From: Escherichia coli
Lineage (GTDB): Bacteria > Pseudomonadota > Gammaproteobacteria > Enterobacterales > Enterobacteriaceae
Strand: one strand, 5' to 3'
DNA: 64,000 bases
Assembly (NCBI RefSeq): GCF_036507355.1
Contig: NZ_AP027877.1
Positions within the stretch are counted from its first letter, which is position 1, and each line of letters begins with the position of its first letter. The position numbers and the translations under genes were made by a program. Below are positions 57,644 through 64,000 of this stretch, one piece after another. Under the pieces are notes generated by a model. It ran no database searches and was not told the DNA's origin. It saw nothing but the letters and a program-made list of their open reading frames with translations.

Positions 57644-57730
57644 GCCCGGATGGTGGAATCGGTAGACACAAGGGATTTAAAATCCCTCGGCGTTCGCGCT
57701 GTGCGGGTTCAAGTCCCGCTCCGGGTACCA
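57644..57730 (+). tRNA. leuZ: tRNA-Leu (TAA)
   Basis: 87 nt GCCCGGATGGTGGAATCGG...GGGTACCA. Confidence 0.95.
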
Positions 57731-57772
57731 TGGGAAACATCAGAATAATCAAAGCAATAAGCAGTGTCGTGA

Positions 57773-57796
57773 AACCACCTTCGGGTGGTTTTTTTG
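57773..57796 (+). terminator. Rho-independent terminator of the glyW-cysT-leuZ operon
   Basis: AACCACC-TTCG-GGTGGTT followed by T7. Confidence 0.85.
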
Positions 57797-57969
57797 TGCA
57801 TGCAATTCACGCCCTGTGCATATCCTGTGCTCACGGGGTGCAATGAGCTGCAATCTTCAGCCTGGCAATGCCGAATCGAACGTGTCGCTTCCAGCATAGA
57901 GAACCAGGCCGCTTTGCCTGTTTTCCGGTACGCTTCCGGGAAGGGGGCCGCTGAGCAAGCTGTAATGCT

Positions 57970-58709
57970 CTAGCCACCCTGAGTACAAAGTTGCTTAATT
58001 CGTGCAATCACCTCATCTCTGTACTTCTGGTGTCCGCGCATAGCCCTTGGATGGGCAATTCTGAAACAGATTGCATTACCTGTTTTGAACTCCCATAGCT
58101 TCCCCGGAATGACTGCAGAAGTCTCATAGCCGCCCAGCTCAGTAAGCACCTGTTTTATGATGTAGTCTGTTCTCCGGGCTCCAGATGCAAAGATGATGAA
58201 ATCAGGCTCAAGGTGTTTAATTTGTACCGCCAGCAGCTTCAGCGAGGCAATATAACTTCCTGCACTTCATTTTGAGGGCGATTGAGAGGGGTCAGTCCGT
58301 CGTAATCCCACGCCAGTAGATTGGCATACACGATAGCCTGAGGAGGGATATTAAGCTCCCGGGCCAGCCTGAAATGATACTGCGTGAAGCGGCTACGTGA
58401 TTTGAGGTTAGTGGTGCCATAATTTTGTACCGGAAGATGTTTCCTGTAACGATCTACAGCTTCTTCAACCACCTGCCCGATGGTGACGTCAGGTATAAGT
58501 CCCAACACCCGTGATATCGTATTCTTACCATTCAGAGTATTCCAGCCAGCGGTTTCACGTCCAACCAGCATGATTTTTACCGGTGAGTGCCAGTATTCTT
58601 CAAAGGGCACGGGTAAAAAGACGCCTGAGTATTTATCCTCATTCAGGTTAAATGACTGGGCGTCAACTTCCTGCAATATCCGTTTGTACGCGTCTAATAG
58701 CTTTTCCAT
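57970..58709 (-). pseudogene. Hypothetical protein with uracil-DNA-glycosylase-superfamily-like motifs, split by a frameshift
   Basis: 156-codon ORF (58239-58709) continues in another frame for ~89 codons to TAG at 57970-57972; frames overlap at ~58242-58268; motifs KIMLVGRETAGW and IAHPRAMRG resemble UDG motifs A and B. Confidence 0.55.
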
Positions 58710-58789: not shown

Positions 58790-59989
58790 ATGCAAAAATC
58801 CTTCCGGTTTACCAATGCATCCATCAAAGCCCTACCTGCAAATACTGATACCCGCTCTACAGAGCTTGAGGTATCTGATACCGAAGTTATTGGACTCAAG
58901 TGCCTCTCAGGTCGAACAGGCAACAAGCGCTTCCTTCTGCGGTATACATTCCACGGTACCAAAAAAAGTATCAGTATTGGCAGATTTCCTGAAATTGATG
59001 TGGGAACAGCCCGGCAAATAGCCCGTCGTCACAAAGAAGCGATTGCGCTGGGAAATGACCCTAAAGCGGAGCGAGATAACTACCGCGCGATGCCAACACT
59101 TGGTGAGTTTTTCCATCAAACCTATGTTCCTTATATAAAGCGCCATAAAAAGTCATGGGATAAGGATGTTCAGCGTTTCACGCAATACATTGAACCTCGT
59201 CTGGGAAAGATACGTTACTGCGATCTCAGGGCCAGAGAGATACAACAGGTGCTGTTTGACATGCTGGAGGGGCGTATTCACGGGCAGCAATATGCGCCGT
59301 CTACCTGTAACAGAGCCCTTGCTATTCTGAAAACGATGGGGCGTTATGCGTTGCGACAGGATGTGCTGGAAAAGAATGAAGCCGATAAGATCCCTTTGCT
59401 GAAAGAGAATAATCAGCGGACGCGCTTTTTTGATGCTGATGAGATCAGGCGCATTCTTGACGCTGCTACCCAATATCCCAACAAAGCTGCCGGGGGATTG
59501 ATAGCCATGTTGTTGTTAACCGGTACACGCAAATCAGAAATGCTTAATGTCAGGCATGAACATATCGACCGGGCCAATCGTACTCTGTTCATTCCTTATA
59601 CAAAAAATGGTCGCAGTCGGACGGTATATCTAAGCGATGCCGCATTATCGATTATTGATGCTATCCCACGAGTTGGCAGTAATCCGTATCTGTTCGCCAT
59701 TAAGGATAATGGAAAACCGATATCGGAACCCCGATGGGCATATGAAAAAATACTGGCACAGTGCGGTATAGACAAGAATGAAGTCTGTTTTCACACCACA
59801 CGTCATTCTGTTGCCTCTTTACTGGTTTCGAGTGGTCAATTCAGCCTGTATGACGTTAAAGCCCAACTGGCGCATGCCAGTATTCAGAGTACAGAACGTT
59901 ACGCGAAATTAACACCGGAACGTATGCGTCAGACAGGGCAGGGAGTGACTGACCTGCTTCTGAATACTGCGGCTACGAAGCAGATGTGA
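58790..59989 (+). CDS. int: Tyrosine recombinase / phage integrase (P4-type), island integrase next to leuZ
   Basis: ~399 aa from ATG 58790 with RBS GAGGA; C-terminal catalytic region HTTRHS...ERYAKL. Confidence 0.88.
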   Translation: MQKSFRFTNASIKALPANTDTRSTELEVSDTEVIGLKCLSGRTGNKRFLLRYTFHGTKKSISIGRFPEIDVGTARQIARRHKEAIALGNDPKAERDNYRAMPTLGEFFHQTYVPYIKRHKKSWDKDVQRFTQYIEPRLGKIRYCDLRAREIQQVLFDMLEGRIHGQQYAPSTCNRALAILKTMGRYALRQDVLEKNEADKIPLLKENNQRTRFFDADEIRRILDAATQYPNKAAGGLIAMLLLTGTRKSEMLNVRHEHIDRANRTLFIPYTKNGRSRTVYLSDAALSIIDAIPRVGSNPYLFAIKDNGKPISEPRWAYEKILAQCGIDKNEVCFHTTRHSVASLLVSSGQFSLYDVKAQLAHASIQSTERYAKLTPERMRQTGQGVTDLLLNTAATKQM

Positions 59990-60019: not shown

Positions 60020-60262
60020 ATGAGGATGCATTTAAAATGCCCACAGTGTGGCAGTTGTAATACATTGATAAGTTCAGCAGGAAAACTGCCATCGATAACC
60101 GATAATAAACGCTCTGGGTATATTAGCCTGGAGTTTTTACCTGAAATACTGAAAGAAATTATTAAGGCTATTAAAAAACTATTTGGATTCCTTGAACAGT
60201 GTGAAAGGAATAATGCTCCAGTGCTTATCTGTATGGACTGTGGGTATTATGAAAGAATTTAA
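60020..60262 (+). CDS. Small zinc-ribbon protein (CxxC...CxxC), hypothetical
   Basis: 80 aa with CPQCGSC and CMDCGY; followed by its own terminator. Confidence 0.55.
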   Translation: MRMHLKCPQCGSCNTLISSAGKLPSITDNKRSGYISLEFLPEILKEIIKAIKKLFGFLEQCERNNAPVLICMDCGYYERI

Positions 60263-60310
60263 ATAGAAAACCAATAACTGTAAATAATAGTTATGCGGAT
60301 GTATAAAAAC

Positions 60311-60339
60311 CCCGATACGTTAATCGTATCGGGTTTTTT
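60311..60339 (+). terminator. Rho-independent terminator separating the zinc-ribbon gene from the three-gene cluster
   Basis: CCCGATACG-TTAAT-CGTATCGGG followed by T6, A-run upstream. Confidence 0.8.
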
Positions 60340-60357
60340 GTTTATGAGGATCATTCA

Positions 60358-60729
60358 ATGAAATTTGTCTCGAACTGGCAAGACCTGCCGTCGCTCCTTC
60401 TTCCGGAGTCAGTAATGAGTCTGTTGAAAACAGAGCTGGTACTCCCATTTGAAGATGAATACTCTGCAATGAGTTTCTGGGATGAAGTCGGGGTGACATT
60501 AATATATGTCGAGCCCGATGATGTACCTGAAGATATTAAAGCGCAGGTATTAAATGTGATTCATCAGTTAATTGCAAATCCAGAATTTGTAGTCCGTCTG
60601 ACAGATGACTATTACCTGATGCTTTCTGTTACGGAAGATAACGGGAACGGTATTTATCTGTTATTTCACCCCGATTGCCCTCTGAAGGGTATTGATTTAT
60701 TAGTTTCTATGGCCGAATCACGCTATTAA
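60358..60729 (+). CDS. Hypothetical acidic protein (123 aa)
   Basis: RBS GAGGA; highly acidic; AT-rich codon usage unlike the flanking core genes. Confidence 0.6.
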   Translation: MKFVSNWQDLPSLLLPESVMSLLKTELVLPFEDEYSAMSFWDEVGVTLIYVEPDDVPEDIKAQVLNVIHQLIANPEFVVRLTDDYYLMLSVTEDNGNGIYLLFHPDCPLKGIDLLVSMAESRY

Positions 60730-60754
60730 ACACAAGCAAAACCAGGAACACAAA

Positions 60755-61288
60755 ATGAGTAAATCAAAATTAGTTAAAAATAATGTTGAGTCAGTTTCGA
60801 AGGAGATTAAAAATGAGGCAGAGGTTATTCATGAAAATCTCAGTGCAGATGAACAAACATTATCTGATGTAAAAGACTATCAGTTGCTCATTGAAACAGG
60901 TCAGGCAGAAAAAATCAGTCCTAAGGCAAGTGGTATGCTGACATGGCAACTGGCGATATCAGAGGTGGACAATGAACTTTATCTTCGTCTGGTGGCAAAT
61001 GGCTGTGGAGGGTTGTTCTCTAAGGACTGGATCTCACTTTCAAAGATTGCATCTGTTCTGGAAACACAACCTGCTACCGGCTTCTCATCCGGAGTATTCA
61101 GGCCGCTATTCAAAGGGGCAAGCACCAACAATGCAGGTTTTCTGGCTGCAGTTTTACGCTCCCCGGATATATGTCTGCTGGAGGCACATCCAGAGAAGTT
61201 ATTTACTCATGTATTATACCCGGACTGGAGGGAGCGGTTGAATAAACTTAATACGATTAGTAGCCAGGAAAAGATTACAGAGGATTAA
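60755..61288 (+). CDS. Hypothetical protein (177 aa)
   Basis: RBS AGGA; 25-nt gap from upstream gene, suggesting co-transcription. Confidence 0.6.
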   Translation: MSKSKLVKNNVESVSKEIKNEAEVIHENLSADEQTLSDVKDYQLLIETGQAEKISPKASGMLTWQLAISEVDNELYLRLVANGCGGLFSKDWISLSKIASVLETQPATGFSSGVFRPLFKGASTNNAGFLAAVLRSPDICLLEAHPEKLFTHVLYPDWRERLNKLNTISSQEKITED

Positions 61289-61360
61289 TTTATTTCCTGC
61301 ACTGTTATACAACCAGAAATCACCACACACCACTATTTACTTTCTAAAGGAAAATTTATT

Positions 61361-61795
61361 ATGCAAACCCAATATGCCTTAAAACAGGCAGGATTAACTC
61401 TGCCTGTTACTAAAGAATTTCAGCAGCATATTACTACGCTTCTGGCAAATCGGGTTTTACAAAAAATAACTGAGGCAGTGGTTATTAATTTCCGTGATCC
61501 GGACTACAGTGCAGAATCCGGCGGATTTCATCCGGTTGAAATGCGATTCATCCGTCAGGATAACGAATGGTATTTCGATTATGTCACAGACTTTAGTTAC
61601 ATGGGACGAGTCTACCCGGAACTGGAAAAAGAAATTGATTTTTGCTGGTCGGGGAATTATGTCTTCCATTATCTGGCTGGGGATATTTCACTGGCGGCAG
61701 AGAGGAATGAACTCTGGTCCTTATGGGAGGGTAATTTTATGGATTACCTGTCTATGGGGATTTACCGGGTAACGGTAACTGTGGAAAGTTGTTGA
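61361..61795 (+). CDS. Hypothetical protein (144 aa)
   Basis: RBS AAGGA; Trp/Tyr/Phe-rich. Confidence 0.6.
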   Translation: MQTQYALKQAGLTLPVTKEFQQHITTLLANRVLQKITEAVVINFRDPDYSAESGGFHPVEMRFIRQDNEWYFDYVTDFSYMGRVYPELEKEIDFCWSGNYVFHYLAGDISLAAERNELWSLWEGNFMDYLSMGIYRVTVTVESC

Positions 61796-62096: not shown

Positions 62097-62324
62097 ATGT
62101 ATAAAACTCGCGGTGAAAGGATCGCAGAAAGGCTGTGCTGGATATTACTTCAACTGTATACCGGTAATACGGTATCGGTTAATGATATATGTCAGCGTTT
62201 CGCGGTCAGTCGCCGAACCGGACAGCGTGATTTGTTGAGAGTTGAAACTGTAACGGAAACTATTTCACCTGGAAGGGTAAGGCTGGCAAATTTGATAAGG
62301 GAACGAGTTAGACGAAATTTTTAA
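62097..62324 (+). CDS. HTH DNA-binding protein, possibly a truncated regulator
   Basis: 75 aa; helix-turn-helix-like segment VSVNDICQRFAVSRRTGQRDL. Confidence 0.45.
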   Translation: MYKTRGERIAERLCWILLQLYTGNTVSVNDICQRFAVSRRTGQRDLLRVETVTETISPGRVRLANLIRERVRRNF

Positions 62325-62546
62325 TCGAATCCATATCAATTCTATAAAATATGAAAATTAACGGGAGTAAATATACACTCCCGTTATAATGCAACCTTTT
62401 TTTAACTACTCAAATGATATTAATTTAGGTGCGACAGTGTTTTTATGACATGTTAAATTCGCAAGATCAATAATATCATGAAACAATTTTAGGTAATGCT
62501 GCCAACTTACTGATTTAGTGTATGATGGTGATTTTAAGGTGCTTGC

Positions 62547-62822
62547 GTGGCTTCCATTTCCATCAGATGTCCTTCCTGCTACGCTACTGAAGGCGTGGTG
62601 CGTAACGGCAAAAGCACTGCCGGACATCAGCGCTATCTCTGCTCTCATTACCGTAAAACATGGCAACTACAGTTCACTTACACCGCCTCTCAGCCCGGTA
62701 CGCACCAGAAAATCATTGATATGGCCATGAATGGCGTCGGATGTCGCGCCAGTGCACGCATTATGGGCGTTGGCCTCAACACGGTTTTACGTCACTTAAA
62801 AAACTCAGGCCGCAGTCGGTAA
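62547..62822 (+). CDS. insA: IS1 InsA
   Basis: 91 aa [23 protein letters not shown]... Confidence 0.92.
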
Positions 62823-62848
62823 CCTAGCGCATACAACCGGGCGGTGAT

Positions 62849-63244
62849 GTGATTGTCTGCGCTGAAATGGACGAACAGCGGGGTTACGTCGGCGCTAAAT
62901 CACGCCAGCGCTGGTTGTTTTACGCGTATGACAGGATTCGGAGGACGGTTGTGGCGCACGTATTCGGTGAACGCACTCTGGCCACACTGGAGCGTCTTCT
63001 GAGCCTGCTGTCGGCCTTTGAGGTCGTGGTATGGATGACGGATGGCTGGCCGCTGTATGAATCCCGCCTGAAGGGAAAGCTGCACGTTATCAGCAAGCGT
63101 TACACTCAGCGCATTGAGCGACATAATCTGAATCTGAGACAACATCTGGCAAGGCTGGGACGGAAGTCACTGTCGTTCTCAAAATCGGTGGAGCTGCATG
63201 ACAAGGTCATCGGGCATTATCTGAACATAAAACACTATCAGTAA
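62849..63244 (+). CDS. insB: IS1 InsB (expressed as InsAB' by -1 frameshift)
   Basis: Frame open upstream of the first ATG. Confidence 0.9.
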
Positions 63245-63762: not shown

Positions 63763-64000
63763 TTAAGCCCCCAACTTCTGTTAAAGGAGTTGGGGGAGAT
63801 TTAACGGTTATCAGACTGGAAGACAGAATGTCGGATATTTACGGGCTATGATATCCATCAGTGACTTCATTCGCGGTGTTACAGAACTAAATTTCATTTG
63901 GGGTATTTTTGCTCTTACCGCATTTTTTACATCAGTCACCGTTACTGAATAGCCTTCTGACGTCAGCCATTCAGCAACCTCTTTACAGGAATAACTTTTT

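Follow-up and report, generated by a model that had tools for sequence, protein, structure and literature searches.

Pipolins are elements that encode a primer-independent family B polymerase (piPolB), and in Escherichia coli their site is the tRNA-Leu gene between pgsA and yecA. The papers describing them (Redrejo-Rodriguez 2017; Flament-Simon 2020; Mateo-Caceres & Redrejo-Rodriguez 2024) name a uracil-DNA glycosylase (UDG) among the pipolin genes together with integrases and DUF2787, list it with the replication-associated genes as a type-4 UDG, and treat the repeat overlapping the tRNA gene as the right end of the element (attR). We analyzed a stretch of 64,000 nucleotides of E. coli DNA (contig NZ_AP027877.1 of assembly GCF_036507355.1; “the window” in the following), which carries a gene of the UDG superfamily on the minus strand at positions 57970–58709. 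Element type, insertion site and att flanks are the same as in the pipolin papers, and the gene occupies the same tRNA-proximal (attR) position beside an XerC-like/IntSXT recombinase; it is the pipolin UDG gene. Unlike in the published account, the gene is also widespread outside pipolins, and the copy in the window is frameshifted. Based on the frameshift, the fold, a profile match to family 4 UDG and the literature, this copy is identified as a pseudogene of the UDG superfamily.

The type-4 label in the pipolin papers is an annotation only. Identity between the pipolin protein and the family 4 UDGs of known structure (T. maritima 1L9G, T. thermophilus 1UI0, S. tokodaii 4ZBX) is about 15%. 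The [4Fe-4S] cluster of family 4 is held by four cysteines that the pipolin protein does not possess. Only C215 and C241 occur in the E. coli protein; where S. tokodaii has C85 and C101, the pipolin family has alanine and an invariant Ser156, and an N-terminal CxxC is lacking. Motif A reads G-R-E-T-A-G-W across the pipolin family, as opposed to G-E-(A/G)-P-G in family 4. Most likely the intact protein belongs to a divergent clade that is related to family 4 UDG and has no iron-sulfur cluster, and acts as a monofunctional DNA glycosylase.

The second group of described systems comprises the Brig enzymes. Likeness to Brig1 and Brig3 (and Brig2) lies in the UDG-superfamily fold, in the single-gene effector and in the location on mobile defence islands. 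The published loci of Brig1, of its homologue from Nocardioides and of Brig3 have an ADP-ribosylglycohydrolase as neighbour, and such a neighbour is also found at some loci of the pipolin UDG family. The active-site motifs differ: motif A is G-L-N-P-G in Brig1, features N50/E55 in Brig3 and is G-R-E-T-A-G-W in the pipolin family, while the base-recognition position is Glu147 in Brig1 and Asn in the pipolin family.

The gene, its fold assignment and the idea of a defence function are already in print. The copy in the window is in itself of little importance, since it is a dead copy, the gene itself is part of existing pipolin descriptions and the frameshift had been flagged by the NCBI pipeline. 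What remains of value is the family. About one in ten complete E. coli genomes has an intact member, which combines an unusual active-site motif and the lack of an iron-sulfur cluster with a confidently predicted UDG fold.

A single-nucleotide deletion inactivates the gene in the window

The intact form of the pipolin UDG gene is 741 nt long and encodes 246 residues. As reference we used the allele of strain DX6 (WP_284564328.1), which is located at the same position as the window gene. In the window an open reading frame (ORF) of 156 codons extends from 58709 to 58239 on the minus strand, and a second minus-strand frame is open from about 58268 to a stop codon at 57970. The original prediction, made from the letters of the window, had read these overlapping frames as one protein of about 245 residues split by a single indel. 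This was confirmed by the allele alignment: the window is one base short in comparison to DX6 (GTTATATT-GCC in the window, GTTATATTAGCC in DX6), and the gap at 58248/58249 lies inside the overlap zone that had been named, which was thus accurate to within a few bases. The lost base is an A of the gene strand (minus strand) following codon 154. The product of the deletion allele is truncated at residue 156. Since the two core strands beta3 and beta4 as well as motif B are gone, the truncated product cannot be active.

Whether the split reflected inactivation or a sequencing error had been left undecided in the original prediction. Single-base indels are generally a common assembly artefact, and a programmed ribosomal frameshift would likewise leave the gene functional in the window strain. 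We looked at the distribution of the allele, using an 80-nt probe centred on the deletion and exact matching in 507 complete E. coli genomes. The deletion allele was found in 29 of them, whereas the other approximately 478 have one extra base and thus a single frame, as do the copies in all other genera. The 29 genomes come from unrelated projects of many laboratories and from dogs, poultry, pigs, frogs, humans, sewage and a cave. In addition the missing base is located outside any homopolymer run, and no slippery heptamer is present at the deletion site. The absence of a homopolymer and the presence of the allele in 29 genomes of separate origin indicate that the mutation is inherited and does not stem from faulty reads. 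A programmed frameshift was rejected because of the single frame elsewhere and the missing heptamer, and an artefact or a gene still functional in this strain is extremely improbable. Of the two options offered earlier, inactivation thus stands and the error does not. We regard it as settled that the feature in the window is a pipolin gene with a UDG fold and that the 1-nt deletion has inactivated it.

Strain RM14721 carries the identical allele, labelled “hypothetical protein, frameshifted” by the NCBI annotation pipeline (PGAP). In the strains HUE1 and L37, which have the intact allele, the polymerase gene is 100% identical to that of frameshifted strains, indicating that the deletion is recent and lineage-specific. 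A few further copies in E. coli (hits H24–H30) have lost their 5’ end or persist as fragments, which shows that the gene is dispensable in some lineages. Promoter and terminator scans around the UDG gene gave results no better than shuffled sequence.

Decay is recurrent also in other genera (Proteus penneri, locus L050, 10001–10783; Hydrogenovibrio, locus L057, 10115–10519; loci L055, L056 and L058): one copy is split into two ORFs, one is interrupted beside transposase-like genes and several are fragments.

Fold and active-site motifs of the repaired protein

Direct scans of the repaired protein were uninformative: Pfam gave no match even at E≤10, NCBIfam noise only, a sequence search of the PDB none, and PHROGs a family of “unknown function” only. 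Homologue searches returned 186 and 233 relatives, mostly from Gammaproteobacteria, some of which are named “uracil-DNA glycosylase-like domain-containing protein” in UniRef. A first profile of 47 sequences did not match any UDG in the PDB; a wider profile of 121 sequences matched the family 4 UDG of S. tokodaii with an E-value of 2e-5. The Pfam UDG model matches 8 of the 121 family members at E≤1e-3; at E≤0.1 the number rises to 46. The AlphaFold2 model built from the 121-sequence alignment has a predicted local distance difference test score (pLDDT) of 94.7 and a predicted template modelling score (pTM) of 0.92. All of the best 50 Foldseek matches of the model in the PDB belong to the UDG superfamily, family 4 UDG being closest, followed by UdgX, SMUG (SMUG1) and TDG. 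Structure and profile comparison thus assign the repaired protein to the UDG superfamily and not to an unrelated fold.

The repaired protein has the alpha/beta fold with a central parallel sheet that is common to UDG families 1–6, and within this fold we located the hallmarks of the superfamily. A model strand at residues 46–50 (beta1) is directly followed by motif A, G50-R-E52-T-A-G-W56 (codons at 58542–58562, minus strand), which occupies the place of the superfamily motif with non-canonical residues. It was assigned from conservation, the secondary structure of the model and a weak alignment of G50 with the Gly of GEAPG in the S. tokodaii enzyme. Behind motif A, between beta1 and beta2, a helical insertion of about 60 residues is found. 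N130 (codon at 58320–58322, minus strand) lies at the end of beta2 and corresponds to S. tokodaii Asn82 in the hidden Markov model alignment (“iiwaNLf” to “vfitNVV”); Asn82 is the base-recognition residue and contacts uracil at its Watson-Crick face. Motif B, H220-P221-R222 (codons at 58045–58053, minus strand), is out of frame in the window allele. Sequence, conservation and alignment identify it: H220-P221 align with the His-Pro of the S. tokodaii motif B (HPA), and distant family members have the canonical HPS.

Among the 121 diverse homologues G50 is invariant, and E52, W56, N130, H220 and P221 are conserved to at least 90%. The two peptides quoted in the original prediction, KIMLVGRETAGW and HPRAMRG, thus fall on the most conserved columns of the family, so that the resemblance to motifs A and B noted there is not a matter of chance. 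Family 1 UDG enzymes have a catalytic Asp in motif A, and E52 would take the corresponding third position of the motif. Since every catalytic position is conserved under strong constraint, the intact protein is likely an active glycosylase.

Distribution and neighborhoods of the gene

Of 5,426 complete E. coli genomes, 531 have the UDG gene, in every case on the chromosome, and 295 have piPolB. Around 240 E. coli genomes contain an island at tRNA-Leu that is truncated or lacks piPolB and has kept the UDG gene and the integrase end. No match to the gene was found among 50,697 phage records, and a phage origin was therefore rejected. The UDG-like protein is encoded on 15 plasmids.

For the comparison across species we used one genome per species, giving 45 loci. 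In Enterobacter, Citrobacter, Franconibacter, Buttiauxella and Shimwellia copies with 93–97% identity are located beside the same integrase and core genes, and piPolB lies within 10 kb of the UDG gene wherever the contig permits. None of about 30 more distant loci has piPolB or the pipolin integrase nearby. An obligatory linkage of the gene to an integrase was rejected, as no integrase is found in its vicinity in Proteus, Pectobacterium, Marinobacter and at other loci. In Proteus the gene has an SRA-HNH enzyme with a NUDIX protein on one side and an Mrr enzyme on the other, and a large cluster of methyltransferase genes comes next. A pair of Mrr-type and PD-(D/E)XK genes, which is also found in the E. 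coli island, adjoins it in Pectobacterium, Intestinirhabdus, Buttiauxella and Atlantibacter. Regulator-like helix-turn-helix (HTH) genes, including the WYL type, are frequent neighbors of the distant relatives.

A conserved acidic ORF of 109 residues abuts the start of the gene in 15–16 marine and pseudomonad genomes, and in three proteins this partner is fused to the UDG-like protein. These two-gene loci, like those of Proteus and Pectobacterium, have neither piPolB nor the integrase within 10 kb. In four of the loci with the 109-residue ORF an ADP-ribosylglycohydrolase (Pfam PF03747, E-value 8e-73) belongs to the same cluster (L039, 10765–11877; L043, 2127–3389; L044, 3126–4388; L045, 5140–6429); in Marinobacter it lies directly downstream.

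An island of Stutzerimonas contains an ORF of 252 residues (L004, 5000–5758; L005, 39–797) with the peptides “IWVCGIEWGG” and “MNLYPIGF”, which recall Brig1-type motifs. It may encode a second, different UDG-like protein; a PADLOC scan of this ORF gave no hit.

Possible function of the intact protein

We favor the explanation that the window holds an inactivated copy of a pipolin UDG whose intact form is a glycosylase acting as defence cargo in the manner of Brig1, Brig2 and Brig3, and assign this explanation a probability of roughly 60%. The intact enzyme would read a flipped-out, pyrimidine-type base by means of N130 and H220, with E52 of motif A standing in for the water-activating acidic residue. 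Because Asn is retained where Brig1 has Glu, we infer that the probable substrate is uracil or a modified uracil or thymine and not a modified cytosine. Abasic sites would then be produced in invading DNA bearing the non-canonical base. The window copy, whose product stops at residue 156 and thus short of beta3, beta4 and motif B, does nothing. Defence cargo is favored because the gene travels independently of piPolB and has restriction-type, regulator and ADP-ribosylglycohydrolase genes as neighbors, and because it is absent from phages and has been lost without visible cost. By analogy with Brig1 and Brig3 a role in phage defence is plausible: like these two, relatives elsewhere have Mrr, SRA-HNH, WYL-type regulator and ADP-ribosylglycohydrolase genes as neighbors. 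If it applies, enterobacteria would have in this family their own equivalent of the Brig enzymes known from soil and integrons, and it would help to explain why pipolins keep a UDG gene at the integrase end.

Several observations weigh against this explanation. Homology to Brig1, the one Brig enzyme compared by sequence (taken from the supplement of the respective paper), could not be detected: aligning the 121-sequence profile to it with hhalign gave a probability of 0.13% and an E-value of 0.45. PADLOC gave no hit for the repaired protein, and reports on activity or phenotype of the pipolin UDG family were not found in the literature searched. The defence-type neighborhoods are suggestive only, and the link to an ADP-ribosylglycohydrolase is confined to 4 of the 45 loci, none of them enterobacterial. 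Furthermore, the tight linkage of the gene in Enterobacterales is to the integrase and the pipolin core and not to the variable cargo, and a role in maintenance of the element fits this arrangement equally well.

The main rival to defence is accordingly a repair role in the element's own replication: a housekeeping-type glycosylase would clear uracil or damaged bases from pipolin DNA during replication by piPolB, which would cross the resulting abasic sites, and phage defence would not be involved. The grouping of the UDG with replication-associated genes and its type-4 label in the pipolin literature agree with this, as does the efficient bypass of abasic sites by piPolB described there. The constant position beside integrase and core genes in Enterobacterales points in the same direction, and the retained N130 and H220 are the residues that canonical UDGs use for uracil recognition, to be expected also of an ordinary uracil-repair enzyme. 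However, far more E. coli genomes have the gene than have piPolB (531 against 295), the 15–16 two-gene loci as well as those of Proteus and Pectobacterium outside pipolins are free of piPolB and feature restriction-type and regulator genes instead, and 29 genomes have lost the gene without consequence while keeping an intact piPolB. E. coli is moreover already equipped with Ung and Mug. On balance we consider the repair role unlikely. The 109-residue ORF and its fusions would also be compatible with a glycosylase that is toxic, always or under certain conditions, and is restrained by its partner in a toxin-immunity or abortive-infection module, of which the E. coli pipolin copy would be a derivative without partner; this appears distinctly improbable.

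Returning to defence by glycosylase cargo, a more specific form can be put forward with some reservation. The intact family might represent an uncharacterised clade of anti-phage glycosylases that has no sequence relationship to Brig1, is native to Enterobacterales and excises a modified base of the uracil or thymine type from phage DNA. Its marine and pseudomonad relatives might work together with the 109-residue partner, possibly an inhibitor or regulatory domain, and with the ADP-ribosylglycohydrolase. We hold this version as tentative and somewhat doubtful.

The pipolin surrounding the gene

The window contains uvrY, uvrC, pgsA and a tRNA cluster Gly-Cys-Leu, with the minus-strand UDG gene just downstream. 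The integration target, tRNA-Leu (anticodon taa), was located by ARAGORN at 57644–57730 on the plus strand and is the insertion site known from the literature. Its 3’ part is overlapped by the att direct repeat at 57675–57805, the attR of the pipolin papers, the second copy of which lies beside yecA outside the window. In RM14721 this second copy is found about 28 kb away (L003, 15513–15645); the pair spans 133 bp with 96% identity.

Divergently to the UDG gene a tyrosine recombinase is encoded at 58790–59989 (plus strand), the “XerC-like” or IntSXT-type pipolin integrase according to PGAP and NCBIfam hits of the XerC/XerD type. It is followed on the plus strand by a pipolin core module at 60020–61795, recognized by PGAP, synteny and the literature and consisting of an 80-residue zinc-ribbon ORF, orphan ORFs of 123 and 177 residues and a DUF2787 protein (61361–61795). 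An IS1 transposase (insA/insB) is located within the element at 62547–63244 (plus strand), as seen from its ORFs and the PGAP annotation of near-identical loci. The window ends in the 3’ end of piPolB (63811–64000, minus strand), which covers residues 805–866 and the stop codon, the rest lying beyond it. In tblastn all 62 of these residues are identical to the 866-residue “DNA polymerase” of RM14721. The Pfam scan of the piPolB protein gave a weak DNA_pol_B_2 match only and NCBIfam no hit; the protein was identified by synteny and from the literature.

The complete element can be followed in RM14721, where an island of 28 kb extends from tRNA-Leu to yecA with the UDG gene at the tRNA-proximal end. 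From the tRNA the order is UDG gene, divergent recombinase, orphan ORFs, DUF2787, IS1 and the 866-residue polymerase, continuing with an HTH gene, a second recombinase, a type I restriction-modification system, DUF262, PD-(D/E)XK, Mrr-like and SIR2 genes. The polymerase thus lies between att direct repeats at a tRNA gene, and the further core components of a pipolin are present as well: the IntSXT-type recombinase near att, DUF2787, the orphan ORFs and, close to piPolB, a second recombinase accompanied by an excisionase-like gene. The surrounding element is an E. coli pipolin with the published architecture. This context had been missed in the original prediction, whose interpretation as a whole is partly supported.

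The small ORFs after the integrase (60020–61795) and a 75-residue HTH protein (62097–62324) are kept in the pipolins of Enterobacter, Citrobacter and Buttiauxella; none of them matched an NCBIfam family. At 62491–62492, immediately upstream of the IS1 copy, the window is missing a 308-bp segment that RM14721 and DX6 both have. This IS1-adjacent deletion indicates that the window derives from a different strain of the frameshift lineage.
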